A stretch of 64,000 nucleotides of DNA from Adineta vaga. Taxonomy: Eukaryota; Animalia; Rotifera. A program made the translations under genes and the position numbers. Below, one piece after another: positions 2,863-62,798 of the stretch. The first letter of the stretch is position 1, and the number at the start of each line of letters is the position of its first letter. The notes under the pieces are model-generated. The model was not told the DNA's origin, made no database searches, and saw only the letters and a program-made list of their open reading frames with translations. The stretch lies in NCBI GenBank assembly GCA_021613535.1, contig CP075497.1:434001-498000 (forward strand), written 5' to 3'.

Positions 2863-3404
2863 AACGGGATTTAATGGTATTACGCAGTGAGCTTCATCAA
2901 AACCTTTCGGTGTCGAACTTAAAAGAATTTCAAAAATTTGACACTTTTTGGAGATAGAAAATGTCGAAAAATGCGAAGAAATTCATTTTCTTCATGTCGA
3001 TGAGAAACATTAGACTTTTCAATGAAAATGGATGTTTTTCAGTATTTTTATAACAGGAGACTCTTCGAAATACATCTCGGAGATGCAGCGGGAAAACTGC
3101 GTTTAATGCCATCGATATGAAGAAAATGAATTTTTTCACATTTTTTTACATTTTCTGATTAGTTTTCCAATATTTCATCTCAGAAAAATGCTCTCAAAAT
3201 TTTTCCATCTACACAGTTTTGCAGAACTCGTTGAACTCTATCGAACTATGTAAAAAGATTTAGGAAAAAAAATGTTTCTTTCATGTTGCAATTACTTACA
3301 CCATATTTTCTATCACCAAAAAGTGTCAAATTTTCGAAGTTCCTTTAAGTTCGACACCGAAAGGTTTAGATAAAGTTCACTGCGTAGTACCAATAAATCC
3401 CGTT
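2863..3404. mobile_element. MITE with ~100-bp terminal inverted repeats
   Basis: AACGGGATTTAATGGTATTACGCAGTGAGC...CTTTCGGTGTCGAACTTAAA from 2863 is the reverse complement of about 3305-3404 with few mismatches. Non-coding interior. Confidence 0.85.
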
Positions 3405-6275: not shown

Positions 6276-6396
6276 GTATCAATATTCATCAAAATATATT
6301 GTAAAGGATATAAAGAAGAAATACATGAAAATTAACATAGATATATATTTATATGATGAAATGGCTTTTTTTCTCTTGTGAATAATTGTTAAATTG

Positions 6397-7110
6397 TCAT
6401 TCCATTGATCGATAACTTCTTTCAAATTTAAGTTCAACTCTTCCTTCCTCATTGTAATTTTTTGTTTTTATAAACCATTTTCCTTCAAATTGATATTGAT
6501 TACAATTCCAATCAACTTGAATTGTAACATTATGTCCAAGATTTTCTATTAAATTTCCAGTTCCTTTTCGATATTTCTTTATGAAAGCTATACGATTCGT
6601 TTTTATTGAATAAACTCCTTCAATAACAAATTCTCCAATATCATCACTTCCATTTCCAGTTATTTTCGATGTTTCTGGATCAAATAAAAGTGAAAATCGA
6701 TAAGGTCCATGAAATTTATCATATTGATAATAACGACTTAACCAAAAACCTGAATGGAATTGATCACACTTTTCTCTATTTGATCCTATGTTAACATATT
6801 CTTCATTTGATGGTGTTGGAAAACTATTTGACCAAAGATGATAAAGTGCCATTAGAAATACAATAAATATACCAAATGTTATTACATATTCTATAAATGT
6901 CGTTGGAATTTGATAACCACTACGCATGTAACCTGCATGTCTTCCACGATAGAAATGATCTAAAAAGTAAAGATATGATAAAAGATAGAAAAATCTTATT
7001 AACTTACTTCGTCCTGGACGACTACGACCTTTTGGACCAGTAGTACCTTGACAATAGATTACACTTATAAAAATTATAAGGATTAAAGATATACGAAAAA
7101 TAATATGCAT
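6397..7110 (-). CDS. Signal peptide + TM protein with a beta-rich C-terminal domain, function unknown
   Basis: 237-aa ORF with hydrophobic N-terminus and internal TM. Probably one short in-frame intron at about 7008-6961. A decayed paralogue lies at 33628-34143. Confidence 0.75.
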   Translation of the reverse strand: MHIIFRISLILIIFISVIYCQGTTGPKGRSRPGRSKLIRFFYLLSYLYFLDHFYRGRHAGYMRSGYQIPTTFIEYVITFGIFIVFLMALYHLWSNSFPTPSNEEYVNIGSNREKCDQFHSGFWLSRYYQYDKFHGPYRFSLLFDPETSKITGNGSDDIGEFVIEGVYSIKTNRIAFIKKYRKGTGNLIENLGHNVTIQVDWNCNQYQFEGKWFIKTKNYNEEGRVELKFERSYRSME

Positions 7111-7455
7111 TATGTATCTTTACTGTATTCGATCAATTATTTGTATTGAAGAAATATTATGAAAGAAATTTATGTGTTATTTTGCATCATATCATAATAA
7201 ATGAAAATAAGAATGTATGATAATCAAACGTTTGTAACGTGAATATTGATCGATACACCTTTGAAAAGCACGTGTAATATGATGAAGAAAAAACAGGAGA
7301 ATAGTTTAATAAGAAAAGAAAAAAAACAACCCTCTTATGAGTAATATCTTTTCAAATATTTTCGATTGCAATTTTGCAATAAATCAAGAACGGAAAGAAT
7401 TAGATATTTGCACAAAAGTTTATTATTGAAATATACAATTGACTAAATAACAGAT

Positions 7456-7514: not shown

Positions 7515-7704
7515 ATGTTAAGATAATTCAACTCGAAAGAAAAGTGACAGAATCATAGTTAGACCTTTGATAAACTAATAATTTTCTCCTCTATATGTCA
7601 TCAGTGTAATTAAGATATGGAAATCGAATTTGTTCTTTTCTTCCTTTTATTTACAACAATAACATTATTGTGTATATAAATATCGCAGTTGCTTTTTTTT
7701 AAAT

Positions 7705-7757
7705 AGGGTGTGGTTGTAGATGATTAGCTAGTGCTCACTCCACACCCACACCCTCAA
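7705..7757. repeat. Telomere-like palindromic element
   Basis: AGGGTGTGGTTGT ... CACACCCACACCCTCAA. Confidence 0.8.
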
Positions 7758-8036: not shown

Positions 8037-11000
8037 CAGGGTTCCCGATTACTTTTGAAAGTGGGGGGGGGGGGCTAAATTTTGGCAGAAAGGTTTTTCT
8101 GCCAAAATCATTTTTTTACAAAAATTAATATTATTTCAAATAGTAACATCTAAGTTCATTTTTATTGAAAACAACAAAATATTTAAAAAAACAACTTCAA
8201 AAATGTTCATCATTTTCTTTTACTGGATCAGTTTCTAAAAACAATGCTATATTTCGTGATTTTGCACGTCCAGGATTTTTAACAAAATCTTCAATAATGA
8301 AATTGACAGCATCGTTTGTCAATTGCAAATCAAGACTACTTAATTTTAGTAATACTTCGACAGTATTGTCACTTAATCGATTTCTCATCCAAGTTTTTGT
8401 CCGTCGTAATGTGCTGAACATACGTTCAGCTTCATTTGAACCAACAGCAAATGTTGCAAGTATCTGGTAAAAACGATACCATTCAGAACATTGTTCACTA
8501 CCAAATTTTGCCAGTTTTGATAAGATTGCTGGAATTGTAGTTACACCTTCGATAATTTTCAGGAAACCATGGACATCGTCTTTTAAATTATTTAAATTCA
8601 GTAAAGGTTTATCTGTACGTTCATATGATTTTCCATCAACACCTGTGTGTTTATAATGAATAGGAGATGTATACTTTTGTATCAGTGGATTATTAATTAA
8701 ACTGTCAGGTGATTGATTCGATGGAAATGAGAATACATTCAAATTTTCAATTAATTCTTGAGCTTTTCCATCAAAGCGATTATCTAATGATTTTAAAACA
8801 TGTTGAATAAATTCATTTCCTATTTCACGAAAATGGTTTTCATCAATGCTATTATTAGTTGATTGTTGTTGTCGTCGTGTTGAATTTGCTGTTGATGGAA
8901 TTATTGGAGCAAAATTCTTGATATAATCTAAAGTTGTTTGAAAGCTAATAAAATCAAAATTATTCATGGCTTGTGAGATTGTTTCTCGTGCAGCATTAAC
9001 ATTCACAGCAAATTCATCCAGACATAAACCACGTTTTTCAATTTGTTTTAAGAATTTCATTGCCGGACGAAGGGTGTCACGTAATAAATGTATTTGAAAA
9101 GCAACTACTGGTTTTAATAAATCAGTTACATAACGACGTCCGTCGGAACTTCCAATGCCTTTTGATTGAGATATTGTTGAAAAAGTTAAAATAATAGCCG
9201 AATAATGCTGGCAAGCAAATTGAACAATTTCATACGAATAAGTCCATCTAGTATTACTTGGCTTCGGTACTTTATGTCCTGATAAGTTTCATAAATATTA
9301 ATAATCATTATATTCATAATAATAATAAACTCCTACCTTTCTGACTTGAACCCATAAGCTTTTGACTATTAAAAAGAATTTCAAGTCTATGTGAACTATC
9401 ATTTAAAAAGATTAATGCTGATTTAATTGTATCATATGCATCATAAAAAGAATATTCGATAGCATCTTTAACACCGAGATTAAGTAAATGAGAACGGCAA
9501 TAAATATAAATTCCCCATGCTGATAATCGACTTTGCACATGACCTTGTGTTTGGAAACGCATTGCTGCTGCACCATCATACGTTTGAGCTGTAATTATAA
9601 ATTCTTTACCAACTTGATTTTGTAATTTAGCAAGAAACTCATTGATCACATTAAAAATCCCTAATCAAAATTATAAAAATAATAACTGAATTATAATTGT
9701 TTCAAAAATCTAGTTACCTTCACCACTCACATCATGTATTGAACTTAATTTGAAAATTTCCTCTTTAATTATTCCATTTCCATTTTCTACATATCTCAAA
9801 CAAATACAAATCATCTGTTTAACAGTCACATCTGTAGTTTCATCAATGATTAAATTAATAAATTCTGTTTGTTTTAGTGAAGATATTTGTTGATGATTAA
9901 TATAATTATCGATACTTAGAAGCCATTCTGATGTGGCTTCGTGGCTCCAATACCTTTATATAAACACAGAAATCAGACAGATATCATGTTATGATTTTCG
10001 CATTTACCTTTGTTTCACATTTGATAGATTTAACCATTGAACAATACCAGGACATTCAACTTTTTGTAATAATTCAACAAAAGATTTGAATTTTATAAGA
10101 GCAATCTCTTCTTTAATTATAAACCATAAAGTCTGAAGAAGAATACTCAAGTATTTTCTTGTTTGATTTTCTAAATTTACACAATTTAATTGACCAATTA
10201 TATTTCCATTTTTTTCAACAATTTCAGCTCCTAATCGACGAGCTCGACTCTCTCGATGTAAATCACTGTTTTGATGACGATCGATACCTATGAAAAATCA
10301 AACTTATATTATTTTTTTCCTAACGAAAAATTGAACAAACCATATAATCCTTTATGTTTCAATTTCCAAAAAGGTCTAACTACAAAAGCTCCATTATTTC
10401 GATCAATTAATGTTTCATTTGTCGCAAATTCTATGCAATCAATACATAATAAACCATATCTATCATTACTATGTACGGCTCGCAACCAAGTGCGATCTTT
10501 CGAAAACCAATGACGGCTTGGTTTAACTCGTTTTTGTTTATCATCCGTAAACCATTGAATATTAGGAAATTTTCTCCTTTGTATATCAATAAAATTCAAT
10601 TCATGATGAGTAATAAATTTTACACCTTCGATATGTTTAAAGCTGATTATTGTACTAATTGGAATAAAATCATCAATATTTTGTGTAGATTCAGGCATCA
10701 GTGTTACATCATTTTCTGATTCATCATCTTTACTTTCATCATCACTTGTGGTTTTGGAATCCAAGTCATTGTCATGTTGTGTCGAAATAAAATCTTTAGG
10801 GGATCCAACTAAACAAAGAACGGTATGGTAATGTGAGATATTTATCAATATTTGTTTCATACCATTTTCAGAAACACTTGTTTGATCAGTAGAAGATAGA
10901 ATGTTAGTAATCGATGGTGTTGTTATAGGTGTATTGATTAATGGATTATATGAACAAGAATTATCTATGTAAAAAAATAATGTTATCTTCCGATTTATTT

Positions 11001-11782
11001 TATGTAGAAGTGTACAGTATCATACCATTTTCATTGTCATTGACATTCGGAAGAATATTAGATAAACTTGTTGAAGATTCAATAGTATAGCTTGTGGACT
11101 GAACATTTGTGTCTTGAACACTTGATTCCATTGATACCAATCTATCAATCTCACGATCACTATGAATGGCCAAATCTGTTGATTTTGTCAAAGCAAATTT
11201 TTTCATTGAAAACAAGTTATTTGTTATCACTGGAGTAGGTTTTTCAGCTACTGTTGTTACATCTAATGCTGGTACTGTTGGTTTTAATTTTTCTAAATCG
11301 TTTTTCATTTCATTATACTTAGCATCAATTACTGAAGATGACATTGTATGCATTTGCCTACAATGATCTTTCCAGTTTTTTAGAAGCATTGATTTAGAAC
11401 ATGAAGGACAATGTATTTTACAACTAGTAATATATACTGTTTTCGAAGCCATATAAAGAACTAAAAATAATCTTAAATATAATGAAAATATTACATGTAC
11501 ATGTTAATTAATTAAATCTATAGACGATCAACAAATATGAGTTTTCTGGCAAAAAAGAGTTGATAGAAATGATAGATTTTCTGGCAGAAAAGAGTAGACA
11601 GAAACGATAGATTTTCTGGCAGAAAAGAATCGACAGAAAAAAAGCAAAAATTCGATTTGTATGGTTATTTTATGCGTTTGAAGACCATAAGAAAAACCAA
11701 AAGAAAATGAAAAAAATTTGGCAGAAACAACTAATTTTTGGGGCTGGACACCCCCAGACCCCCCCCCTAATCGGACCCCCTG
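8037..11782 (-). mobile_element. hAT-superfamily DNA transposon, apparently full length
   Basis: TIRs CAGGGTTCCCGATTA and TAATCGGACCCCCTG. Perfect 8-bp TSD AAACCTAT at 8029-8036 and 11783-11790. Subterminal TGGCAGAAA motifs, including three tandem ~34-bp units at about 11540-11640. Confidence 0.95.
8197..11452 (-). CDS. hAT transposase (ZBED/ZMYM1-like), multi-exon
   Basis: N-terminal C2H2-type finger (CPSC...HCRQMH), DETTD, YDGAAAM, CRSH, RW and the C-terminal AERMFS dimerisation motif. About six short GT-AG introns. Confidence 0.88.
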
Positions 11783-18608: not shown

Positions 18609-18709
18609 CTCTCGATATAAGACTAATGTAAAAAAAGAACACTTTTACAACTCTTTTATCTTGTGCGTGATCAAAATAAAAGAAAAAGAATTAGTGTAAT
18701 GAGAATACT

Positions 18710-18784
18710 TCCTATTCCGCGATGTTACACATTCCGGGGATGGGTGGGAACTGATTCCGGAATGTTCAACATCGCGGAATAGGA
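18710..18784. other. GC-rich hairpin / inverted repeat
   Basis: TCCTATTCCGCGATGTT and AACATCGCGGAATAGGA form a perfect 17-bp stem, extended by ACATTCCGG / CCGGAATGT. Confidence 0.85.
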
Positions 18785-19353
18785 TGACTGCTCGAATAAG
18801 CTAACTTGATTTTCATAGATGATGATCTGTTCGTTTGGAAACTCTTCTTATTTCTCTTTTTTACATTTATAATTTGAATAGATGCTATTTGTGTTCCTAC
18901 AGAAATTTTTTTAAATAAATATCGTTGATTATACATGCTGTCCAAAAGAAACTGCACTTGTAGCAATGTATCAAAACAAATAGATTAATTCTTAATGATC
19001 ATAACTACGTTGTCAATTTTAATATCTCTTTAAATGCATGTGATATAGTCAAATGTTTCATATTTCATAAATTAACTATCTTTTGTATGTGAATTTTCCA
19101 TTTGAATATGTGTCAGTGACTTAGTATTACAAAAATATAACATCTTCAGGATGTGGAGAGTTGTGGATATGTTAAGTGTACATGATGAGCTAACGTTCAA
19201 CCCACAACCATTTCTATTTGTTCATCTAGTGATGGTGAAGCCTTAGTCGATGTTGATGTTCCTGAACTGTGTGACTGCGATGAAAGATCCACTACAGCAA
19301 GTTGAATAATTTTTTTTGATAAATGTTTACATAATCTTTTATCTTAATACATT

Positions 19354-19602
19354 TTGCTAGATATTAAAGAAATTTTGCATAATCCTATTTTATCATTGCC
19401 TTGGATTCAAGACAGCAAATGTTCGGGCACATTTCAGTTTTGGAAATCAACTAGAGCGTTTGTCATTGATGCAATTAATAAAAATGGAACAGTTCTTGAC
19501 ATTGGCTGTGCTAATGGATTCTTGTTGGCTTGTTTGACTGAATGGCTACAAGAAAAGTCCATAACTATTGTTCCTTATGGTATTGAATGTGATCCATCTT
19601 GA
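19354..19602 (+). pseudogene. Class I SAM-dependent methyltransferase, 3'-truncated
   Basis: Motif I VLDIGCANGFLL and the post-I strand VPYGIE. The frame stops inside the repeat arm at 19598, before the rest of the fold. Confidence 0.7.
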
Positions 19603-19657
19603 GGGTGTGGGTGTGGGTGAAGATGCCGTAAGAACAAATCACACTCACACCCTCGTG
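19598..19657. repeat. Telomere-like palindromic element
   Basis: CTTGAGGGTGTGGGTGTGGGTG ... CACACTCACACCCTCGTG. Confidence 0.9.
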
Positions 19658-20031
19658 AAAACTTAAGATGATGTCGATATACCAAAGCAAATTGTAATTA
19701 CAAGTATTCTACGCATGCTGTTAAATGACAGATTATTGATCGATTCTTCAGGTATTTATTCATGATATTTTTATCATACAGGTGACTAAATAGAAACGTG
19801 GGATGTTTATATAATACGTAGGCTTCTTTTGATTTTGTATTGTTTTGATTTATTTATAGAAAAAAATAAATCCTATGTGGGTGAAAAAGTTGAGAACGTA
19901 GTTTCTTGTGGAGAAAAAATATTGCACATGAAAATGACGTCAATAGTAATAATGTTGAATAGCAAAACGTTAATATAAATACCAGTTGTACATTTGAGAC
20001 ATTATGGACTCACAACGTCAAATTATACATA

Positions 20032-20456
20032 ATGCGTTCATTATTCATATTAGCTATTTGTGTTGGTGTATTAGTATCATGGTATAACGTTATTTCGATT
20101 ATTTTCAAAATATGTGTTTTGATTTTAGTATTCATGCTGTAGGTAATTGTAGATGCCAAGATAATCGTGGGCAATACACTGAGATAACAAGAATTTGTTG
20201 CCTAGAACAACAGGTAACGCGTGATGTTGGAGTAGTATTTATGGGTCCAAATAATCAAGTATGTTGAAATTTAACAAAATACTCGTTCTAATTATTAATT
20301 GATTGATTCATGTGTATTCGTTATCTTACAGCATTTTTTTACAAATATCTTTTTTTCTTTTATATTTAGTGTATGAATCCAATGAATCGTCTCGACAGTG
20401 GTGCTTTTGAACGGTGTTGCAAAACATTGGCCGTTGGCGGTGCGTCTTGTTGGTGA
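20032..20456 (+). CDS. Small secreted cysteine-rich protein (88 aa, 3 exons; not in the ORF track)
   Basis: Exons 20032-20081, 20129-20258 and 20370-20456 with GT-AG introns give MRSLFILAICVGVLVSCIHAVGNCRCQDNRGQYTEITRICCLEQQVTRDVGVVFMGPNNQCMNPMNRLDSGAFERCCKTLAVGGASCW*. Confidence 0.8.
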
Positions 20457-23099: not shown

Positions 23100-23147
23100 T
23101 TGAGAGTGTGGATATCCATCTTATTCTTACTCACACTCATCCTCAAA
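23100..23147. repeat. Telomere-like palindromic element
   Basis: TTGAGAGTGTGGAT ... CTCACACTCATCCTCAAA. Confidence 0.7.
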
Positions 23148-30682: not shown

Positions 30683-32544
30683 TTGCAACAAACTAGGATT
30701 CAGCTTGATTCGAACAGTTCAAAGTACGATTTATCGTCTTAATTCTCTCGATGAATGAGGATTGTGAACATGAGGTCCTAGACCAATTAGACGTATCAAA
30801 GCCTCTTTATTTTGCAAGGCTGTCTACGGCTACGGATAGATTTCCCAGCAGGGCTCCCCATTCGTCAGGCTTTTCTACATGTTCTCGAACTCAATGGATC
30901 TTTTTCATGCATACATTAATATATTCATCTTCTGAATAACACAAACAAAATATTCTATCATAACTATTTTGAGTGACTTCTCTATTGAATTCCACTGATA
31001 TAGCTTGTCGATCTTAGTCTATAGTGTTCTTCATTCTTTTTTATGGAGATGAATAAAACATTGTCTTTACGATCCTCATAGATGGATGGTTTTAAGATAG
31101 TTTGCTTGATGGAACTGAAGTCACTTTATAGAGAGCACACTAAATATAAACAAAAAATTTTGTTCGTTTTTCATTTGAACTTCGATGGAGTCTGTATTAT
31201 TAAAATTTTTTTCTATCAAACTTCATCTCTATAACTTAAATATTTACATAAAAATTAAAAATATTTCATTTTTATTGTAGAACAAAATTTTCAATGACCT
31301 GATCTGTTTTGAACACTGACTTTTGGATATTTTTTTGTTTTGTACGTTTCTATTTCGATGACCGAACAATTTGTCGCGATGATATAATCCAATCATAATT
31401 TATCATTATTTTTTCGATGATGAAGTCACCTCCTAAGTTAAGTTTGAAACACATATTCGAATGAGTATAAAAATTGTAGAGAATATTTCTACTGACCACC
31501 CTAGACGAACATTTTTTCTCCTGTTTTTGAGCCAGACAGGTTTCAAGATGTGTCATGCGCAGATAATACGCATGACATATGAGCTAGAAAGTTTCAAGTT
31601 TCTAAGTTACGCAAAACAATTTGTTGGTAATTCTATTTTATATCAGAGCAGGACTGCTATTTCTTATTTTGTAAAAGGGGATAGATTCTTTTCATTCCAA
31701 AGTAGAGAAAATTACATTTCTTTTAATAAATCAAGGCAATATATTACAGTTTCTATAATTAGATTATCTTTATTATTCTTTTTTTCCAAAAAACCATTAT
31801 ACTACTTGATTTAGTTCATAGGATAAGTGTCAAAACAATATAACTTCCTACTAATGGAAACAAACTGAACACTCCATGGTACTTTTTCATATCAACGGCA
31901 TCGCGGCACCGATACTATTATGTCCTCACCCTCACTTCGAACTATTGTATTCGGACGACTGATATGGCTCGAAATTATGAACTAAACTTACAACACAATA
32001 AAGTTGCTTGCTTCAAAAAATGAAATAGTAAACAGTATTATTTGCTATAAATCAAAGCGTCGAGAAGTTAACATAGTGACATAAAATTCATTTGAAATAA
32101 AAAAATAAAAAATAGTTTTGTAGATCGATTATTTCATTATCTGTTTAGATAAAAGTGTGTGTGTGTGTGTGTGATATACGATATAATAATTCCATGTTTA
32201 ATCAGAGAATTATCACAAAACTTTAGAGAAAAAATCTACTCCTAAATCTATATTTATTCAAATAAAGATATATGTTATAAAAAGCACGGATCATACGATA
32301 TAAACACACTATTATGACGAAGTGCACACTATACCAACCATTTTATTAAGGACAAAATACAGAAAATATAAAAAGAAATATGTGACAAGGCAATTTTTTA
32401 CTTTATATTTACAAAACAATACATAAAATTTGTATAATCAATATGATAAAGCAAAATAATATATATATATATTGATTGAAATATTCTGCATAATATTGAT
32501 TAGAATTCATCGAACGAAATCAACTATTAATATACAAATTAAAA

Positions 32545-33300
32545 ATGGGTAAACTTGATGGAAAAGTTGCTCTTATTACTGGTGGATCAGAAGGCATTGG
32601 TTTAGCAACAGCTATAACATTTGTCAAAGAAGGTGCTTACGTTTTTATTACTGGTCGTCGAAAAGAAGTTTTAGACGATGCAATTAAGAAAATTGGTGAA
32701 AAATTTGTTACTGCAATTCAATCTGATGCATCAAAATTAGATGAAATTGATAATGTTATCAATATTATTGAAAAAGAAAAAGGTAAACTCAATATTATCT
32801 TTGCAAATGCAGGAGGTGGTACAATTGTACCATTAGAATCAATTACTGAAGATCATTATAATCATGTATTTGATTTGAATGTTAAAGGTATTCTTTTTAT
32901 TGTTCAAAAAGCTTTAAAAATTCTTGAAAATGGTAGTTCAATTATAATAAATGGATCAACTCATAGTATAAAAGGTGTTCTAGGTTATGGTGTTTATGCG
33001 GCATCTAAAGCTGCACTTCGATCATTTGCACGTTGTTGGTCTGTTGATTTAAAAGATCGACAAATTCGAGTTAATATTATTAGTCCTGGTGCTACGGAAA
33101 CTTCATTAGCGAAACAAGCTGTTGGTGGTACAGAAAAAGATTGGCAAGAAATTGTAAAACAACTTTCACCATTGATCGTCTTAGGTCGTTTTGCTCAACC
33201 TGATGAAATAGCTAAACCTACTCTATTTCTTGCTTCAGATGATAGTTCATATATTACTGGAATTGAACTTTTTGTTGATGGAGGTCTTGCACAAATTTAA
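32545..33300 (+). CDS. Classical short-chain dehydrogenase/reductase, bacterial-like, intronless
   Basis: TGGSEGIG, ANAG, YAASK, NIISPG and C-terminal ITGIELFVDGG motifs. Confidence 0.95.
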   Translation: MGKLDGKVALITGGSEGIGLATAITFVKEGAYVFITGRRKEVLDDAIKKIGEKFVTAIQSDASKLDEIDNVINIIEKEKGKLNIIFANAGGGTIVPLESITEDHYNHVFDLNVKGILFIVQKALKILENGSSIIINGSTHSIKGVLGYGVYAASKAALRSFARCWSVDLKDRQIRVNIISPGATETSLAKQAVGGTEKDWQEIVKQLSPLIVLGRFAQPDEIAKPTLFLASDDSSYITGIELFVDGGLAQI

Positions 33301-33520: not shown

Positions 33521-33619
33521 CTTGAGGATGTGAGGTTCGAGTAAAGTTTTATCCACATCGATCCGTCAACCTCTGACATAAACACATACACAAACTATTT
33601 CTTTTCTTGAGAGTGAGGA
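33521..33619. repeat. Degenerate telomere-like element(s)
   Basis: CTTGAGGATGTGAGG at 33521 and CTTGAGAGTGAGG at 33606. Right arm weak. Confidence 0.45.
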
Positions 33620-33627
33620 TTAGATTG

Positions 33628-34143
33628 TCACTCCATTGATCTATAATCTTTTTGAAGTTTAGGTTCAAATCTTCCTTGTCCATTGTAATTTTTTGTTTTT
33701 ATAAACCATTTTCCTTCAAATTGACATTCATTGGAATTCCAAACAAGTTGAATTGTTACATAAATAAATACCTTCAATAGTAAATTCACCAATATTATCA
33801 TAGTTATTTTGTTCAATTCTATTTTTAATATAATCTTTATTCGATGGTATTGAAATACTATTTGACCAAAGATGATCAAGTGCCATTAGAAATAAAATAA
33901 AAATAACAAATGGCATCACATAGCCCATAAATGTAGTTGGAAGTTGATAACCATTACTCATACGGCTTGCATGTCTTCCACGATAAAAATGATCTAATAA
34001 TAAAGAAAATATTATTAAAGATAGAATAATTTAGTTCGTCCTGTTCGAGTTCGACTACTACTTTTTGAATCAAGAGTACTTTGACAATAAATGCTACTAA
34101 TAAGAATCATTATGATCAAAGATCGATGAAAGATTATGTGCAT
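33628..34143 (-). pseudogene. Internally deleted, frameshifted paralogue of 6397-7110
   Basis: Shares GYQxPTTF, HLWSNS and FEGKWFIKTKNYN...YRSME. The central part is missing and the frame is broken. Confidence 0.85.
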
Positions 34144-34631
34144 TATGTATATGTTTTGAACAAATCAAAAATTTCTTTCGTCAAAATATAATACAAGGAA
34201 AGATTGTATTTTGTTTCGCTTGATATCATATCAAATAATAAACAAAAAATAAGCACGTGTTCATCAAACATTTCTTCAATACATATACCTTTTTGTTTTT
34301 TGAATATAATATGTATATAATGATGAAAGAAAGAAAAATAACTAACGTAATAAAAAAATCGAATATTTCTCTGGATCAAAATATAACTTGTAGATGTTTC
34401 TCACATGTGACAGTTTTTATTTTCCTATACATTGAACTTTTCACCGGTTTCTTGAGAATTGTTCACTTCAGAAAGAATATTCGCGATCAAAATAACATCG
34501 AATAGAATCCTACGAAGGCATTCTGTATATAATAACAAGTAATATTCATTCTTACAATTCACTAAATCCTCAACTGTGGAAGGTAGAAATATATTTTACC
34601 TACACAATTTTAAAAAGACTATCAATACTAC

Positions 34632-34693
34632 GGCGTGGATCAGGTTGGTGATAATATATAATAGTGGATCAACACACTCACCCTCACCCTCGA
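34632..34693. repeat. Telomere-like palindromic element (good right arm)
   Basis: GGCGTGGAT ... ACACACTCACCCTCACCCTCGA. Confidence 0.6.
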
Positions 34694-44815: not shown

Positions 44816-45544
44816 TTAGACTTGGTTATTTTGGCCACAACGAGGACAAAATGGATGCTGTGCTAATGAATATGTTTTATTATTCGCTGTCGTCATGTTA
44901 AAAACAGAGCTTTGACCAGAACTGTTACTCGAGTTTGCGAATTTTTCCACTATCATCGTATCCATGCATTGTAACTGTATAACTCGAGCATCTTTAAAGG
45001 TGTTCTTTTCACAAAATCCACTATACGGATAAAACAGTACTTCTTCTTCTGGATATGCAGAGTAATTTCTAATATCTGTACGATATGTTCCATCATTGGG
45101 CGATCCATCGATTTCAAACATATAACTACCAAATACTTGGGCGATGTTTTTGTTACGACTTGTACTAGAAAATGTTGGCCAGAGAAAAGCCATACCTACT
45201 TTTAGTTGATTCATTTCATTTGATTCAAGTTTAAGTCCTCGATAAACTTTAATTGATTCATATGAAAGATTTTCTTTGATAGCCTGTCGTAATTCATTAA
45301 TGTAGTTTGCGTGTTTCTGCAAAGTTTGAAGATCATCGTTTAGAAGGGCTCTGTTGATTTCTTCATAACAAGAATCTGATCCTTCGATTGTCCATTTACG
45401 GAAAAGACTGACTTTATCAATGTTTCGACTGGACACCATCGTGTTTATGATACTTTTATAAGCTGTACGACGAGATCTTGGCCATGTTACTGGTGATGTT
45501 GTATCAACATATCTATTGAAGATGCCATTGTTGTCTCTTGGCAT
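44816..45544 (-). CDS. Mono-ADP-ribosyltransferase (R-S-E class, exoenzyme/ART-like)
   Basis: INRAL helix, VYRG, FSSTS and YPEEEVLF catalytic motifs. Intronless. The frame continues past the TAA to 44516. Confidence 0.88.
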   Translation of the reverse strand: MPRDNNGIFNRYVDTTSPVTWPRSRRTAYKSIINTMVSSRNIDKVSLFRKWTIEGSDSCYEEINRALLNDDLQTLQKHANYINELRQAIKENLSYESIKVYRGLKLESNEMNQLKVGMAFLWPTFSSTSRNKNIAQVFGSYMFEIDGSPNDGTYRTDIRNYSAYPEEEVLFYPYSGFCEKNTFKDARVIQLQCMDTMIVEKFANSSNSSGQSSVFNMTTANNKTYSLAQHPFCPRCGQNNQV

Positions 45545-46032
45545 TATTTGTAGTGTGTGTCTTATTCAAGAATATCTGAGTGAGAATGGAAGAGTATATG
45601 GGATACATAAAAAATGGACATCTTTATAGTAACTATATTTTTGTTCGCCGAAAAATATTCTGTCGAAAGAATTTTTTCTCCTCACCGTCACTTTTACGAC
45701 GGCTTTCGAGACGAAAAACTGTCTTCAATGAAACCTTTTTCAGCGAAGAGGATATATATCTTTTATTATTGATTGTAAAAGAATAACAAATAAAGCCATG
45801 ACTCGTCAAAATTGATAAGAAATACTCCTTTATATAGCCCATTAAGATTATATTCACTTTGGGAAGTTTTAATTTTAATTTTATGATTGATAGCAGATAA
45901 TATTCTTGAATCATTGCATGAAAATCGCATCTAAATCTGATTTATATTACGCAACGATATTCATCAATTTTCATTTTGTTTATAGGATAGCTTCAGATAT
46001 CTATAAATACAGGACAAAGGACTTTTCTCGCT

Positions 46033-46079: not shown

Positions 46080-47393
46080 AATTGTTTTTATTTAATCTAG
46101 AATATTATTAAAATTAATCTTCAAAAGAATAGAATTATTAATGCAATTACGAAACGTTTTGTACATATACTTTAAAACAAAATACTATAAGAATAATATT
46201 ACGACTTTTCACTGTGTATATGATTTGATATAGACACGAACGACTCTTCGAATCAATTGAAAAGAACAATTCAAGATTCGATTCATTTCTATTAATGAAT
46301 ACAAACACTTCTAATGTTGAATTTGAAGAATAACAACATAATTAATAAAGAACACAAAGTATTTTCATTTAAACAATGTTATTATCCTTTTATCATCACG
46401 AATATTTTCATCGAGAATTGAAAAGAAAGAATAATATTAGAAATTCTAAATAATACATAAAACACCTTAATTGAAAAATGGGTTTGTCGAAATGGAAATA
46501 ATTAACATATACGGGAATTGATCGAAACAATTCTTTATGAAGATTTAAATCATTTTGAACTTAATTGAAGTACAACACTTCATTCAATATATCACATCAT
46601 GAAATTCGATTAGTTTCATATAAAATGTCATAGAATCCTCAATTGAGAGATTGACATCTTCATGACTGATTAATATATCTTTTAGTTCGAAAACATATTA
46701 TCGTTAATTATGCTTTAATTACATTTTTAGAGTTCAGAAATTCAAATTCTTTTTCTTTTATTCAAAAAAGAATCTCTGAAGACGAGACAATTTCTTTTGT
46801 TCTTGTTAAACAGATTCAATGATTTGTTGATAAAAATGATCAATTGTCAAATTGAAAAACTAAATTCAAATTTTATTTTTAATTTCTTTTTTTCTTCTTG
46901 AAAACAAGTTTTCATTTCAAAATCGATTGTCGAGTTATTTTATAAATATTTAAAACTTTATCTTAAAAAATTGATAATTTTACAAATCAATTTACAAATT
47001 ATCTTTATTTTCCTATTAAAATAATTTTTTAATCGTATTTCAAAGATTTCAATTATTTTTCTTTTTCAAAATCTTTTCATTGATTTTCATTTGTTCATTG
47101 AGAAATTTTCAAGATTTGATTTGAAAACAAAAAATCTTTGATTTAACAAACATTTTCTTCAAATCAAAACATTTCTTCTGCATAGTTTCATTTCAATTTA
47201 ACAAAAATCGTTTTTTATGACCGAAAAAATTCTTTGAAAAAATAATTTCATCGAAACAAATCAACTTTCGATCTATTTTGCATCGAGTTTTTGAAAAAAA
47301 CAAAAATATTTTCTCACTTTTATTACGAAAAAAAAAATTTTCTTTTCCTTTTTCAAAGTCAAACAATTTCGTTTGAAATACAAAGTTCATTTC

Positions 47394-47637
47394 AATAAAT
47401 TTTATCAAATCGAAGGATTCGATGATTTTCACAATCTGAAACAAAGATTTTCTCCAAAATCAAATGATAAACCGGCAGGACGATTCAATTGATTTGATTC
47501 TCTTCGTTGACCATTTCCAACAACAACAATCTCGCCTTCTTCATCACCTTCACACCATCGCATTATTCGATGACTTCTATAATCTACCACATAGATTCGA
47601 TTCCATTCATCAACAAACAATCCTTGAGGAGAATTCA
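47394..47637 (-). pseudogene. 3' remnant of an NHL gene, paralogue of 53934-55487
   Basis: NSPQGLFVDEWNRIYV is shared with the 53934 gene. Downstream non-coding DNA at about 46617-47400 matches about 53331-53935. Confidence 0.85.
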
Positions 47638-47697
47638 TGGGTGTGTGTGGGTACTCTTTAATTTGGGCCTACATCCACCCACCCACACCCACACCCT
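47638..47697. repeat. Telomere-like palindromic element at a junction of two gene remnants
   Basis: TGGGTGTGTGTGGGT ... CCACCCACCCACACCCACACCCT. Confidence 0.85.
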
Positions 47698-48413
47698 TTT
47701 CTACGTTTTTGGTAGTAGTGCAACGTTAGGAAAAACTTCGCAGCATCAGTGATCATAGTTAATCCATTCAATGGTACACAACGATATCGAGCAATGACGA
47801 CAGAAAGTGATGGTGAAATATTTGCTTTACGTGTTGATAGTAGTACAGGAAATTTATATTCAGTGCAATTGAACCATGAAATGAAAAGTCCTACAAGTAT
47901 CGTTCAGACAGATCCAAGTAATTTTATAGCTGAACAATGGGTAAATATAACCAAAGCTAGTGGCATGCAATCAGATTCAATGGAATTCTTTTTCAATTCA
48001 ACAGCTCATGAATATTTTGTGACAGTGTCCTACGATTCTGATTATCTTGTCGGTATTGATGTATAGTACAACGAAAAATAATAAATGAAACTAGAAATTC
48101 GAATTTACCAGCATATTTATGTTATGCCAATAAAACAGATGCTTTTTATGGTATTCAAGAAGTTCAAGAAAAACGTGCTTGTCGTTTAATACGTTTAAAT
48201 CCTAATACTGGCACCCTGGATATTCTGTCTCCTGACTTTAATGATTTTCTCGCATCGACTGGAACTTGTTATGGAGGTTATTATTTTACAATGATTGTTA
48301 AGAGTCTACATAAACGAAATATTCTCACATTTGATTTAATCAACAAAGGACGAATAATAGCAAATAATACAGCAGATGCATATCTCGATTCAGTTGCATT
48401 TGTTCCAACTTAA
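47698..48413 (+). pseudogene. 5'-truncated, frameshifted beta-rich (propeller-like) protein gene
   Basis: Coding-like sequence starts right after the repeat, passes through ORF 47749-48066, and continues in another frame to ...YLDSVAFVPT* at about 48413. Confidence 0.55.
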
Positions 48414-48843: not shown

Positions 48844-50270
48844 TCAGTTACGATCACGTTCGTGACTGTAATCGTGTCTGTTCGGGCGCTCCTGCTGATT
48901 GATCGGGTTGTGTGTGTTGTTGACTGTACCATTTGATATGGTTTGGTCGCTCATTGAATGTTGATCCAAGGATTGTTCTTCAATATTGAAAAGGATACCT
49001 TTCATATCGGGCCATAGACAAGCTTTGTTGAGGTCATCCCAAATAGTACCACCCGGGCACGATTCCAGCCACATATTTACACCGTCGCACATAGCGAAAC
49101 CTTTCTCGCTGAAAGTCAATGGTCCAGTTCCACTTACACCTTCGCATGGGTTGGCATGAACTAGAACAACATGAGAATTGAATTATCTTGCTGTTTCCAA
49201 CTTTAGTTCGATTAATTTTACCTTCTTGGCAGTTAAGACCATACGAGGTACTTTGATTGCAGATGCAAACATATTTCAGAGCAGCATCTAATCGGAACGA
49301 CTGACAGCGTGAGTCGGATGTTTCACCACATGGTTTTAGGGTTTGACAGACATGGACATCCAGTTCACAAACCTTCCCATCGAAACCAAATGGGCACTGA
49401 CACTGATATGAGGTTTTATCAGTTGGAATGCATCGACCATCGTTGAGACATGGGTGCGAGGTGCACGGATTTTCCACGGGATCCAATTCTAGAATAATCA
49501 GAAAAAACTTTCTTTAAGCTGAAGCGAAAAAAAACAAGAGTATACTGCGTTCACATCGGCGTGAGTAATCATCGTAGTGAAGACCGTAGGGGCACGATTG
49601 TTCAAAACCACGACCATCATCGATGCAAACAACGAATTTACGACCCATCTCCAATGGGATTACAGTTTCAGGACTTTGACCTTGACAGAGAATATCTAAA
49701 ATACGAGAAAAAACATTATTTATACTCCAACAAACAACCACAAGCTTACCAGCGGGATCCGAGGTGACTTGCGTATCCGTATGAAGATCCGTAGGTTTCA
49801 TACCTTGGACAATGCCTTGAAGTGTATTTGGTTGGTGTTGTTGGACCGCTGAGCACTGGTGAGGTGTTGGCATCGCTGATGGATTGGAGTTCATCACTAG
49901 GCTCTTTAATTGGATTCGAAATCGAATCGGTATGACCAGACTTGATATCTTCAGGCTTGTATTCGACTTTGCATGAAACGGGAAAGTTTTTTGCATTGAA
50001 TATAACAGTCAAACCAATGGTCCGAGCAGCTGTATCTTGGAGTTTTGTATCACGCAGTTCAGCGTAGACCTTTGCATTCAAATCAATCGTATTCGCTCCT
50101 GAGTGTGTCACTTTGCCAGTGATCACATTTTCATTCTTAGCAGAGCGCACAACAGCACCTAACAAAAATATAACTGCAGTTTTTATCCAGGTGCTTGTCA
50201 AATACTCACTTTCAATAACACAGAAGAAGACGGAGGCGATAAACGCTAGCAGAAATCGACGACGAATCAT
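48844..50270 (-). CDS. Signal peptide + YbaY/YscW-like domain + chitin-binding (CBM14-like) + EGF + CBM14-like; probable frameshift near 49800
   Basis: ITGKVT...AKVYAELRDTKLQDTAARTIG...FPV...EY resembles YbaY. FVVC...QSCPYGLHYD...RC and ESCPGGTIWDDLNKAC resemble CBM14. CLNDGRC...CQCPFGFDGKVC is EGF-type. Short introns present. Confidence 0.65.
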
Positions 50271-51177
50271 GGAGAATGGACAGTCGTGTACTATGACTTT
50301 TGACACACGGTTCTCTCTATCAGGGACGTTCTATATTACTGTTTTGCTGGTACAAATACGCGGTGGTATTTATACTACGCAATATCTCTTCTTCTATCAC
50401 GTGACTAGCTGTGTGACTCCTCGGCACGATCATCTATACAGAAGAGCATGATTGTTTTTTGAATTAGAAAGGAGAGATGGATGGGATATGTAAGACGAGA
50501 ATCCCTCTTTTCTTTTAAGATTATCAATAATTGATTTTTTTTAATCTTTAACACGATCACTAAAACAACAACAACAAAACAACAAGAGAAATAGAGACGT
50601 AGAACGTTGCTAATATTCGATGATAGGATTCTGTCCATGTTAATAGAAAGTGAATCAAAACAGACCAGCAACTAATGCTGTGTTTGGATGCGTACCTATG
50701 TCAAGAAAAATCATAAACCATCGGTAATTAATCGTGACTTAAACCCGATTTATGCGATTAATCGTCAGTAGTGTAGAACACAACTCGACGATTTGATTCA
50801 AATGATATCTCTTTAGTTCAAATATTCGAGTCTTCAGCGCGCGAGCCCGTTGAGATAGGCTTCTATACTCGGTTGGTAGTCCCGCTACATCAATGCTCCC
50901 GCGTGCTGATCTCATATTAATAGCTTATTCACTTTACTGCTGATTTTGAAATTTAAAAGTCGAGGACTCAAACATTCGAACATTTGAATATTAGAACTAT
51001 CTTGAGGGTGAGTTTATATAAAGATATAGATTCCCAACTACCATGACGCATTTTGAGCTGGCAAAAGATCTCATCGGATGGCCTTGAAATCATCATGAAT
51101 CTAGAAAAACTGAATCAGATGAAGTTGCTTAAGAGAGTGACTAACTCTATGGATAGTATTGTGGAACTCACGTAAAT

Positions 51178-51598: not shown

Positions 51599-51798
51599 GA
51601 ATCTTTTATTCACGAAGTTCTGATGGTGATTTGAAGAGGACAAAAAAACAATATTTAATCTTCATTTAGAATAGATTACATAGAGGATTATGTATTTATA
51701 TGACATTTGATGTTGTGAATATAATCTGTATGATATTTAATAGAATGAGAACAATTGATTTCTTGTCAGTTGTACTATTTTTTTGTTACGAATACATA

Positions 51799-52962
51799 AT
51801 GTTTTTGCAAGTATCTTCTACGATTTATTCAATCTTTTTATTACCAATAGTTCTTAGTGAAATGATCAATGATCATCAAATATTCACAAATAAATTCCTT
51901 GGTAAATCGATTGAAATAAGTGACACACAAACTATTCGCACAATTGATGCATTTCTTCAAGGTGTATTAGAAAGATTTTCAATACCTGGTATTGCACTTG
52001 GTGTTTTTCGAAATGATAAAATAATTCATGCAAAAGGATATGGATATTCAAATATTGAACATCAAGTACCTGTAAAACCTGAAACAGTTTTTCAATCAGG
52101 TTCTGTGGGTAAACAATTTACTTCTATGGCAATAATGATGTTAATTGAAAAAGGAAAATTAAGATTAGATGATAAGATAAAGCAATATTTCCCTGATGCA
52201 CCATCAACATGGAATAATATTACAATTCGACATCTTTTGACACATACATCAGGAATGACTGATTATCCTGATCATATTAATTTACAAGATGATTACACAG
52301 AAGAGGAAATTTATCAAGAAATTAAGAAAAATCCACTTGCATTTCCAGTAGGTGAACAATGGTCATATAGTAATCTTGGATATGTAATGCTTGGAATATT
52401 AATTCGACGTATAACAAATCAATTCTATGGGGATTTTCTCAAAGAAAATGTTTTTAATCCTCTCGGAATGACAACAGCTCGAGTTATTAATGAAACGGAC
52501 ATTATTCCAAATCGTGCTTCAGGATACATTCTCGCCAATGGTGAACTTAAAAATCAGGCATGGGTATCACCGTCATTGAATACTATGGCTGATGGTGCTT
52601 TGTATCTAACTATTTATGATATGGCTAAATGGGATGCCGGACTAAATAATAATCAATTACTAAAAGATCCGAAAAGTTTTGATACAATGTGGTCTCCTGT
52701 AAAACTAAATAATGGTTCGACATATCCATATGGTTTTGGTTGGACTCTTGCACGAGCAAAGAATGGAATGCGTATTGTTGAACATGGTGGTGCATGGCAA
52801 GGATTTAAATCATTTGTTATTAGAATTTTAGAAGAAAAACTCACAATTGTACTCTTCGCTAATCTAGGAGAAACAGAAATCGAGGAACTAGCTAAATTAG
52901 TATTACATTTTTATAAACCAGAATTGGTTCCTAATTTGATTTTGAAATCGATAAATCGATAA
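51799..52962 (+). CDS. Secreted beta-lactamase-family serine hydrolase (AmpC/PBP4-like), bacterial-like, intronless
   Basis: SxxK (SVGK), LLTHTSG, YxN (YSN) and HGG motifs. Likely start MFLQVSS at 51799 with a signal peptide; the ORF track starts at 51700. Confidence 0.92.
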   Translation: MFLQVSSTIYSIFLLPIVLSEMINDHQIFTNKFLGKSIEISDTQTIRTIDAFLQGVLERFSIPGIALGVFRNDKIIHAKGYGYSNIEHQVPVKPETVFQSGSVGKQFTSMAIMMLIEKGKLRLDDKIKQYFPDAPSTWNNITIRHLLTHTSGMTDYPDHINLQDDYTEEEIYQEIKKNPLAFPVGEQWSYSNLGYVMLGILIRRITNQFYGDFLKENVFNPLGMTTARVINETDIIPNRASGYILANGELKNQAWVSPSLNTMADGALYLTIYDMAKWDAGLNNNQLLKDPKSFDTMWSPVKLNNGSTYPYGFGWTLARAKNGMRIVEHGGAWQGFKSFVIRILEEKLTIVLFANLGETEIEELAKLVLHFYKPELVPNLILKSINR

Positions 52963-53933
52963 TCGACTATGATTTTCATCGAAATCTATGGAAATAAAAT
53001 TATGTCTCACTGACCAAAGCTCAATAAAGCAATTAATTTGTTTGGTCTTTACATAAAATATTATAAGAAGAATAACATTTACTATGTCGTAATACAATGA
53101 CTATGGATTTTTTTTTCTTTAGATTTTTTGTAATATCATCATGAATAAGACGAAATCAAGTAAAACAGGGCACGAGAATCACGTTATTTTCTTCATTCAC
53201 CCTGAAGAGTGCATTATAAATAATAGTTAACAAAGTTTCTAAGGTCTATTATTTGCACACAAGAATGATAAGAAGTAATATATATATGATTATACAAACA
53301 TATCATGAGAACTTTTTTTCTATTTAATCTCATATAAAATGTCATAGAATCCTCAACTTAGACCGATGTCTTCGTGACTAATTGATATATCTTTTAATTC
53401 GCAAATATTTATCGTTAATTTATAATTCAGAAATTCAAATTCTTTTTCTTTTCATCAACAAAGAATCTCTACAGATGAAACAATTTATTTAATTCAATTT
53501 CTTTTTTCTTCAAAACAAATTTTCATTTGAATTAAATTTAAATCAACTAAAATTATGTTTTTCCTTTGTTAAAATAATTGAATTTTTCATTTCAAATTCG
53601 ATTGTTGATTTATTTGATAAATCTTTGAAATTTTTTCTTAAAAAATTTATGATTTTACAAATCGATTTACAAATTATCTTCGTTTTTCAATCAAGATTAT
53701 TTTCCTCCTTCAGAATCTTCGAAAATCAATTTCATTTCATTTCATTTCTAATTGAAAACACTTTGAAATCAATTTGAAAGAAACAAAATTATCAGAAACA
53801 CAAACACCAAATGGAAATCTTTGATTTAACAAACATTTTTATCAAATTAAATCATTTCTTCTGACAAATTTCATTTCAATTTCACTAAAATCGTTTTTTC
53901 TCAAATCTTTTCGTTTGAAATGCAAAGTTCGTT

Positions 53934-55487
53934 TCAATGAATTTTATCAAATCGAACGATTCGATGATTTTCACAATCTGAAACATACAGATTTCCTTCT
54001 ATATCAAACGATAAACCTTGAGGAGAATTCAATTGATTTGATTTACTTCCTTCACCATTTCCACCAATAACAATCTGACCTTCGTCCTCTCCTTCATACC
54101 ATCGCATTATTCGATCATTCCCCCAATCTGCCACATAGATTCGATTCCATTCATCAACAAACAATCCTTGAGGAGAATTTAATTGATTGAGATTGTTTCC
54201 CCAAGCATTTCCTCCAGCCACAACAACTCCTTCACGAGCATCTTTTCTCCATTTCATTACACGATTATTCTTCGAATCTGAAACATAAAGAGATTGATCT
54301 TTATCAATAAAGATGAAAGTAGGACAGTTGAGTTGATTTTGTTTATTTCCATTTCCACCTGCAACTAACGTTCCTTCTTTGTTTCCATTCATCTTTTCTA
54401 AATTCCATTTTCTCACTTCATTCTTCTTATAATCAGAAACATAAAGAAATCCATGTTGATCCATTGTTAAACCACAACAATCAATATTTTCAATGAGAAT
54501 TTGTTGTTTTTGATCTCTTGACCATTGCATCACTCGTCTGTTCAAGTAATCAGCAATGATGATTGAACGGTTTTGTTGATCAACAATCACGTCTGTTGGA
54601 CAATTCAATTGATCTATTCTATTTCCTTCTTCATTTTCACCTGCAATGATTTGTCCTTGTTTTTCATCCCATTTCCATTCAACAATACGATGATTTAAAT
54701 GATCAGCAATACAAATGGTTTTGTTTTCATCAACAAAGATTCCATAAGGACGAGAGAGTTGATTTAATTTACTTCCATTTCCATTTCCTCCCGCAACACT
54801 TTTTCCATTTTGTTGAATTTTAATTTCTAAACAATTTTCAAAAGAAAAAAGATTTTTGAAAAAGACATTTGATTTGTCTTTGTGTTTTTAATTAGAAAAT
54901 TTAAATCTTTAAACATGAGTTTAAAATCAACTTTTCATTTCAATAAAATAAGAATTCATAACTTTCAACTTACGTTTCGTTAAAATAATTGAAATTTCAT
55001 TAGTGAATTCTTGACGATGTTCTCGGATTGAAATATTTAATGGATTATTCAGTTCTTCAGTCATTTGATTTAATTTTCCTCGTAAATCCTTCAAATCAAT
55101 TTCATTAAATTCATTTTCTTGTTGAATTTCTTTAATTTGTTCACTTAATTCACTTAACTTTTGTTCGATCTCTGTAACAGATGTTTTAGAATGTTCAACA
55201 ACATTTTGTCGATATTTTTCAGCTGTTTGTTGAATTATTCGAATTGAATTTCTTTCCCATTGATCAATTCGTTTGATCAATGAATGATTTAATGGGTTTT
55301 GTTTCTGTTCGTTTATCCTTTGTTTAAATTGATCATAATTATTGATAACAGCGTTTAATTCTTCATTTAATAATTGTTGATGTTCATTTAAATCTGCCAG
55401 ACAAAATTCTTTTGAACATCCTCTGCAAAGAGTTGTAAATTTTTTATATTTGAGACATTTGAAACATTGTGCTGTGTTGTTTGCCAT
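53934..55487 (-). CDS. B-box-like Zn finger / coiled-coil / NHL-repeat protein
   Basis: Exon 1 has CFKC...CRGCSKEFC and a coiled coil. Exon 2 (about 54826-53934) has NHL repeats. Paralogue of 23203-24729. Confidence 0.88.
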
Positions 55488-61015: not shown

Positions 61016-61120
61016 AGTTAGTAATGCTATATGAATGTAGACATTTTTTTTTATAAAGCAAGTTAAAATAGTGTTTTTTTTTTCTTCTCGTTCCTGTTTA
61101 TTTGCTACTAGCACAAAATA

Positions 61121-62798
61121 CAGGGTGGTTCAAAACCTTTACGCCCCTGGTTCTACCTCTAGATCAAATGGTTTCATCAACAATTTTATACTAAATCGTA
61201 GCCCGTAAACAACTGCATCAACGAGTGCAGCCATATACTCATGATTAACAATGAAGGAAAAGACACAGGGACGATACATGCATATGTGCACGTACAGATA
61301 AGGAAGAAATGAAGAAAAAGAAAAAGGAAAAGAATAACCAGGACACTTTTTCAATGTTTTTCATTTCTTTCATGTTCTAAACGTTTCTTTGCTCGTGAAG
61401 ATAACTGTTTTCGTTACCTCAAGAACTGAGTTAAGTATTATCTGAACTTCGACAAGTTCCTGATATCGAAATTGAAGAAATTAAAATGGTCACTCTTCCT
61501 GACACAGAAGAACAACGATTTGTGGATCGAATTCGTTGCATTACATACCGTGAGATACGCGATGAAATGATTGCAAGAACAGGGAATACATTTATCAGTC
61601 GCGAATGGATTTCCGAAAAGCTTCATCGTAGTGAAGACTGGGTACCACGGACTTGGAAGAAAACAGTCGAAGAATGCTATACACAATTTGCAGATGGTCG
61701 ACTTCAGGTGCTCTCGTAAGAAAGCAGAAACATTGTTGCTTCAGCAAGTGGTGTTAGAAACAGCGGCTCTCGAAAAATGGCACGAGAATTTTAGAGAAAA
61801 CAGGACAGAAAGTGAGTTATTCTACGGTTCGTCGTGAACGTCAGTGACAAGGATTAAAACCATTCCATGTTATTTCAAAGCCACGGAAACCAGTCACACA
61901 TGTTGAGGATCGAAAATGGCTTGCAAATTTCGTTGCTGACTAGGCCGAGGAAGATTTTCTACATATGGCGCCGTCGGATGAATTTTATATCTATGTGATA
62001 AGAAAACCAAACCATCAAAATGACAGAATTTGGGCAAAATCTGTTGAAGACATCACCGATGATGAAAGGTACCGTGAAATGGTTCAGAACGCAAAATGCA
62101 TTGGAATTTTCGTTATGTTCACTGCAAAGAAACTTCTTTGGATTCTGAAAGGGGATGGTCAATCGTGGAATGGCGCCTATTTTCGTGACATTATTCTGGA
62201 GAAACATGTGATTCCATTTCTGCATAATCCAGTCAATGTTGTTGATACAGATGAAGTCATATTTCTTCACGATAAGGCAGCCTGTATGAAAGCTAATGCA
62301 ACACAACATTTTCTGGAAGATGAAGGAGTGCATTTCTGGGGCAATTCGATTTGGCCTGGCAATAGTCCTGACATGAATCCTGCAGAGAACATCGGTGCAA
62401 TTATCAAAGATAGAGTTGAAGAGCTGATGGCAAGTGAAGATCCTCAAGATAGATACAATTATGACGCTCTCGCAGCTGTCAGAGGATGTCATACCAATTT
62501 CTAAAGTTATAAAATTTACTGTTAAGCAGTTTATATCCTCAATAAATGAGAAACTTCATGATATATTCGAATAGGTGAATGGAATGATGGTTCTTGCACA
62601 CATTCTAAATTAGAGGATATATGGCACTCTGATATATATGGCATAAGCTCTTTTGATTATGTAATAGACAACACCTGATTCGATAGTACAGGTTGATGTA
62701 GCAGTTTACAGACTACGATTTGGTATAAAATTGTTGATGAAATCGTTTGATCTATAGGTAGAACCAGGGAGGGGGCGTAAAGGTTTTGAACCACCCTG
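61121..62798 (+). mobile_element. Tc1/mariner-superfamily transposon (DD37E type), defective
   Basis: ~100-bp TIRs starting CAGGGTGGTTCAAAACCTTTACGCCCC. TA at 61119-61120 and 62799-62800. Confidence 0.93.
61486..62504 (+). pseudogene. DD37E transposase, interrupted
   Basis: SDE, HDKA and WPGNSPDMNPAEN with 37 residues between the second D and the E. Stops and frameshifts between 61719 and 61965. Confidence 0.88.

Follow-up and report, generated by a model that had tools for sequence, protein, structure and literature searches.

The telomere repeat of bdelloid rotifers is TGTGGG (PMC8494291, PMC7943196), and the complements ACACCC and TCACCC both occur in bdelloids (PMC6431247). Telomere repeats have been reported from the deletion breakpoints of Adineta vaga lines (PMC13564844), and the neotelomeres described there, in which bdelloid repeats sit on break ends beside deletions, have been proposed to be transient caps that leave scars. 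In vertebrates, short ITS and TERC-ITS are described as having been inserted during break repair, accompanied by deletions and filler, and one of them is head-to-head; they hold few internal units, have empty ancestral sites and short matches at the break ends, and are rare and mostly of one orientation (PMC8537989; see also PMC2246262, PMC7215372). Fusion-type head-to-head ITS show a G-rich and then a C-rich arm and join natural chromosome ends with their subtelomeres (PMC8537989). Lastly, the ends of Athena/Terminon elements carry short ACACCC/TCACCC stretches, and copies are cut off by short telomere tracts (PMC6431247).

Here we describe a palindrome at position 19600 of an A. vaga window (the whole 64-kb stretch of DNA that was analysed), in which two short telomere-repeat arms stand face to face, the left arm perfect and the right decayed. 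It is a member of a family of such elements. Like the A. vaga neotelomeres, it places bdelloid repeats on a break end beside a likely deletion; however, each neotelomere caps a single end of a shortened chromosome, whereas here there are two facing arms, a spacer and rejoined DNA, recurring approximately every 3 kb. The resemblance to short ITS is closer, in that a few units of the organism's own telomere repeat (TGTGGG, TGAGGG) occupy an internal site and are probably associated with deletion, filler and short break-end matches, but the head-to-head arrangement is the rule here and the deletion probably ends in an older scar. An empty homologous site exists for the element at 23102-23144; the 19600 element is probably for the most part common to the intact homologue. 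The order of a G-rich before a C-rich arm is that of fusion-type ITS, although arms of only 2-4 units lie here on cut exons (at 19599, 47637 and 47699) in place of subtelomeres. In contrast to Athena/Terminon ends, the window gave no hammerhead match and no reverse transcriptase was found among the ORFs scanned. MITEs are short, present in many copies, bounded by inverted ends and mostly intergenic. The present family is likewise short and multicopy with terminal inverted repeats, but it lacks target-site duplications, its interiors appear heterogeneous, host DNA is lost at the site, and the two halves of the host gene are not both kept. The element works like a break-repair telomere insertion, and we class it neither as a fusion ITS nor as a MITE.

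The named homologues of two window genes come from Rotaria, Adineta and Didymodactylos, marking this as bdelloid rotifer DNA; its G+C content is 31%, its introns are short, and NHL, B-box, LDL-receptor-A and FG-GAP genes are present. The ORF that runs into the left arm (19354-19602) ends in VPYGIECDPS and, as the first-pass annotation had read it, takes its stop from the arm, the TGA at 19600-19602 being that of CTTGAGGGTGTGGG. The TTG at 19354, which the ORF finder had chosen, had to be given up as the start, as it lies inside a GT-AG intron that is conserved in an intact relative of 73% identity (L001). Both class I methyltransferase features are present, namely the glycine-rich motif I (LDIGCANG) and the acidic residue after the second strand (GIECD). 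Pfam matches of the ORF all fell under the curated cut-offs, and its homologues are named class I SAM-dependent methyltransferases. All 8 significant matches, from 18 candidates, run on for approximately 123-132 residues beyond ECD[PS]S, bearing out the earlier view that the fold extends past the cut; beyond strand 2 it is incomplete, approximately 130 residues being absent from the window allele. Similarity stops at 19599 for each of four homologous proteins (tblastn against the 64-kb window), and so does DNA similarity to L001 (blastn). Neither tblastn with the four homologues, whose other matches had E values of 0.47 or worse, nor blastn found the 3′ part anywhere in the 64 kb, in agreement with the claim that the gene does not continue beyond the right arm. 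With no 3′ half, no target-site duplication and homologues that do not end at the cut, a simple insertion is excluded, as had been argued.

Other parts of the first-pass annotation fared less well. It had looked for a CTTGA-like seed in the intact copy, and none is there: the residue following ECD[PS]S is V or I in 8/8 homologues, with a codon that begins in G or A, L001 reads CCCTCT and then GTG at the cut, and the second allele (below) departs from the window after 19599. The host supplies at most CATCT, which is a candidate priming seed or microhomology. The unrelated gene that it placed after the right arm is probably real, as a small, three-exon, Cys-rich gene at 20031-20456 whose splice sites are uncertain, but it starts approximately 375 nt further on.

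In one Rotaria homologue the N-terminus carries a fused PF05721 domain, which was seen neither upstream in the window nor in L001; with this domain absent, the 5′ part of the gene may also have been lost long ago. Elsewhere upstream we note, directly ahead of the splice acceptor of the earliest exon seen, a possible, much-decayed element at 19147-19211 (arm scores of 3.7 and 6.5 bits), and further a 37-nt inverted repeat at 18701-18793 (84% complementary, with a 19-nt G-rich loop) that is unlike the other elements.

Table 1. Positions in the window of the truncated gene, the palindrome that ends it, and two sister elements
Feature	Positions	Strand	Evidence or remark
Upstream methyltransferase exon (contains LVDVDVPELCDC)	19230..19300	+	tblastn/blastn to homologues; bounded by AG acceptor and GT donor, both shared with L001
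GT-AG intron	19301..19360	+	Same position in L001; absent from spliced homologue P0004
Truncated exon, class I SAM-dependent methyltransferase, motif I LDIGCANG, cut after ECDPS	19361..19599	+	
CATCT, where the host sequence ends; also the flank most often found 5′ of arms	19595..19599	+	Second allele aligns to 19599
G-rich arm (TGAGGG, TGTGGG twice, TG); provides the stop codon	19600..19619	+	
20-nt spacer, probably common to both homologues	19620..19639	.	
Second telomere-repeat arm, slightly decayed, C-rich on the + strand, probably common to both homologues	19640..19654	-	
Sister palindrome, matched on either side by a paralogous site lacking the element	23102..23144	.	Left p 0.016; right 0/500 random segments as good
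3′ fragment of NHL-repeat gene, cut mid-exon at G-rich arm	47395..47637	-	86% identity to paralogue at 53901-54179 stops at approximately 47637
Sister palindrome joining two truncated genes	47637..47698	.	
Conserved bdelloid gene (approximately 313 aa), first approximately 76 residues absent, cut mid-exon at C-rich arm; frameshifted	47699..48410	+	

Allowing one mismatch at most, the arm motif was matched 20 times in the 64-kb window, against 0.0 in 20 Markov simulations. A hand-made list comprises 31 arms in 20 elements, 11 of which are two-armed, and three further partner arms were found later. Elements measure 39-82 nt with spacers near 20 nt, and their arms are built of TGAGGG and TGTGGG units in varying number and register. 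Polarity is uniform, with the G-arm before the C-arm in 6 pairs and the reverse in 0. Ends of two kinds recur, TCTTGAG on the one hand and YCGAG or ACGAG on the other. TCTT stands directly 5′ of 10/31 arms and is missing from the other 21, against a background for TCT of 1.8% per position; this enrichment could mean that priming favours such sites or that TCTT is a constant portion of the element itself. Target-site duplications were not found (3.86 vs 3.57 ± 0.31 nt, 14 elements), and spacers are not copies of their own flanks (7.06 vs 7.20 nt). Purine skew in the spacers is marginal (p 0.07). Among 18 spacers, with extents picked by hand, likeness was slightly above chance (mean score 11.05 vs 10.2-10.6, p approximately 0.01 or less); 15/153 pairs scored 16 or more where approximately 5-6 were expected, the best matches spanned 10-15 nt, and no pair was near-identical. 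The 19600 arm is the sole one of the 31 into which at least 75 open codons read, and for 28/31 arms no gene cut was shown. Three elements sit 50-80 nt beyond stop codons, like the place proposed below for the 19600 element before the break.

At Rfam gathering score there were no matches in the 64 kb, a search that weak or unmodelled hammerheads could escape, and no bacterial promoter or terminator was found. The sequence ATCTTGA resembles rolling-circle nick sites or integron sites; we rejected such a reading, as the 78 protein queries scanned yielded neither a Rep nor a recombinase (approximately 55/129 long ORFs lay outside these) and 21/31 arms lack TCTT. Matches of the arm motif in viral contigs were put down to chance (25 matches, 0/25 with a partner arm within 90 nt).

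The sister palindrome near 47.6 kb is a true break-and-rejoin scar. Its right-hand gene begins at approximately residue 77, immediately after the C-rich arm, in 8/8 homologues tested (of 22 found), and its arms start in other registers and without the ATCTTGAG flank. With unrelated genes cut mid-exon on both sides, each bearing at its tip repeats that point to the join, this element has the form expected from capping and ligation of two broken ends and not from an insertion. The break-and-rejoin origin that had been suggested for the 19600 element stands for the family, through the two cut genes at 47637-47698, but at 19600 itself the palindrome, judged by contig boundaries and depth, does not seem to have been made entirely at this break. 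In the same neighbourhood, 46610-47635 duplicates the NHL gene 3′ end and flank at 53324-54179. A paralogous gene pair is also formed by 6367-7233 and 33598-34273, and element 7459 begins where the paralogue has TCTTGAGA; a TCTTGAG host seed at that paralogous site is weak (p 0.03, left flank only). Elements 7704-7755 and 34640-34691 were considered as lying at paralogous positions and were dismissed, with flanks matching no better than chance.

We compared public contigs of four runs with 18900-20400; the three heterozygous runs represent three studies. In these three, depth is two-copy upstream, with a heterozygous bubble, and the graph then splits at 19569 into branches of 86 and 571 nt. 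The 86-nt contig (19539-19624) contains the junction, whilst in the fourth run (X1) the whole stretch is one contig with the cut allele alone at a depth of 65.6, i.e. two-copy, and this run may be the source of the window DNA. The 571-nt contig, present in 3/4 runs, matches 19539-19599, with one mismatch at an unlisted position within 19570-19599, and then continues for 510 nt unlike the window. Both branches have approximately one-copy depth (12.8, 13.9 and 51.7 for the 571-nt branch; 12.1, 18.6 and 48.2 for the 86-nt window branch). In 3/3 heterozygous runs, 19609 is the first base of the downstream contig, which extends across the spacer and the right arm with no branching. Its depth is 0.95, 0.86 and 0.80 of two-copy (2.05, 1.42 and 1.50 of one-copy), and its letters vary between runs, including T/A at 19656, as expected of merged alleles. 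The protein of the second allele was not among the matches of our homologue protein searches.

Since L001 needs 399 nt to complete the gene, the 510-nt overhang would hold the missing coding part and approximately 80-110 nt of flank. The 571-nt contig would then complete the gene and rejoin at 19609. From contig boundaries and depth, we infer that the intact homologue has the palindrome from 19609 onwards together with all downstream DNA, and that the G-rich arm before this point differs from it at base 19608 at least. Because the homologues would share sequence from 19609, a local deletion likely gave rise to the window allele, which was not joined to a foreign segment under this reading; the net loss would be at least approximately 470 nt, a size that is likewise deduced from boundaries and depth, and most of the palindrome would be older than the deletion. 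Out of 8 toy graphs, the sole model to give all observed boundaries combined sharing from 19609 with an assumed further locus sharing the arm, which the end of the 86-nt contig then requires; in one run, loose ends at 19625 are a hint of such a second locus. The length of 571 nt in these graphs followed from the choice of filler and therefore tests nothing. A graph without rejoining predicts one-copy depth downstream.

The explanation we favour, with modest confidence, is that a deletion of this kind on one homologue ended in an older scar and that the broken end was re-capped with telomere repeats. Its most serious competitor, to which we give appreciably less weight, dispenses with telomere synthesis: an old palindrome already starting ATCTTGAGGG would, as a hairpin, have broken or brought replication to a halt, and plain microhomology would have rejoined it to CATCT. 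The hairpin is indeed stable (folding z = -4.1), TCTT precedes 10/31 arms well above the TCT background, and an identical shared element would produce an 86-nt branch (toy model M2). However, that reading expects an intact allele with an identical CATCTTGAGGG left arm, for which the two-copy contig should start at 19595 or 19596 and not at 19609, so that an extra allele difference at 19608 is needed; moreover, the 47.6-kb arms were laid directly on cut exons without a ATCTTGAG flank. New synthesis is favoured by the difference deduced between the alleles at 19608 and by a left arm that is perfect where the right one has decayed. One old substitution or slip at 19608 combined with plain microhomology joining nevertheless gives an identical graph. 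The favoured explanation is further weakened by a downstream depth that reaches only 1.4-1.5 times one-copy in 2/3 runs, by the 28/31 arms without a demonstrated gene cut, and by a likeness among spacers that a decayed mobile family would produce as well.

That both arms and the spacer were made afresh at the 19600 break, joining the gene to element-free DNA, we regard as improbable. The left arm begins exactly at the cut and the same anatomy recurs at 47637-47698, but an element-free intact allele predicts a two-copy start at approximately 19655 (model M1) where 19609 was observed throughout the heterozygous runs, the T/A difference at 19656 lies inside an unbroken contig, and only the right arm has decayed. 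Slightly more improbable still is a decayed family of miniature transposons, one end of which caused an adjacent deletion into the gene. Inverted arms, the range of lengths, the modest likeness of the 18 spacers of approximately 20 nt and the two recurring end types would suit it; against this are the lack of target-site duplications, telomere units in varying number and register, spacer matches of merely 10-15 nt, and the two-sided gene loss at 47.6 kb. The junction does sit at a repeated motif, where an assembler might err, but it appears in the independent assemblies of 4/4 runs, in one of them within a single contig, and an assembly artefact is therefore largely refuted and most improbable.

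Under the favoured explanation of re-capping within an older scar, events may have run as follows. The old scar would have lain approximately 80 nt beyond the stop of the intact gene. The gene would have been broken within its 3′ part or close to it and the left end resected to CATCT, and TGAGGG-TGTGGG would have been added to this end by a telomerase or an Athena-type reverse transcriptase, primed on TCT. The new G-rich tail may then have annealed to the complementary strand of the left arm of the old scar, with trimming and ligation to complete the joint. The other elements of the family are likely break scars too, in which both ends would have been capped with 2-4 repeats and joined through approximately 20 nt of filler.

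A wider proposal, which we advance tentatively and would not yet bet upon, is that bdelloids routinely cap both ends of a break with a short pass of telomere repeats and join them, that old scars serve as reusable landing pads, and that TCT and the shared spacer words are a readout of the telomerase RNA. A newly capped end would anneal to the nearest old scar and the intervening DNA would be deleted. A candidate telomerase RNA locus would then hold CCCACACCCTCA beside the shared spacer words. To our knowledge, no telomerase RNA is known for bdelloids, and our literature search, which covered its sources in part, found none. Nor did we find a description of dense head-to-head bdelloid scars in the portions consulted; the primary Athena/Terminon papers or fig. 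S25 of PMC13564844 may show them.

Scars at intervals of a few kb would bear on the way bdelloids repair heavily broken chromosomes, since telomere-assisted end joining would then be a main force in their genomes, truncating and shuffling genes. What we describe here is a broken allele of an ordinary gene, and it marks a little-described repair signature, to which the locus adds a coexisting intact allele and a hint of the reuse of old scars. The locus is useful in that the same cultures harbour both the cut and the uncut allele, and one run has the cut allele only. Losses of heterozygosity have been reported in A. vaga (PMC8494291), and run X1 possibly represents such a loss, fixing a null allele.

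The window also contains other repeats and mobile elements. A piggyBac-like transposase (PF13843) lies at 56316-57941, a weak DDE_3 match at 61944-62504 is bounded by inverted repeats at 61119-61222 and 62692-62800, and a broken transposase-like region without a Pfam match occupies 8197-11503. At 2863-3404 there is a MITE-like 100-nt inverted repeat of 91% identity with an inner 47-nt pair. Lastly, several genes of bacterial appearance are possible horizontal transfers, these being a beta-lactamase-family gene (51670-52962), a short-chain dehydrogenase (32500-33300), a YscW-like gene (49746-50330) and an ADP-ribosyltransferase-like ORF (44816-45565).
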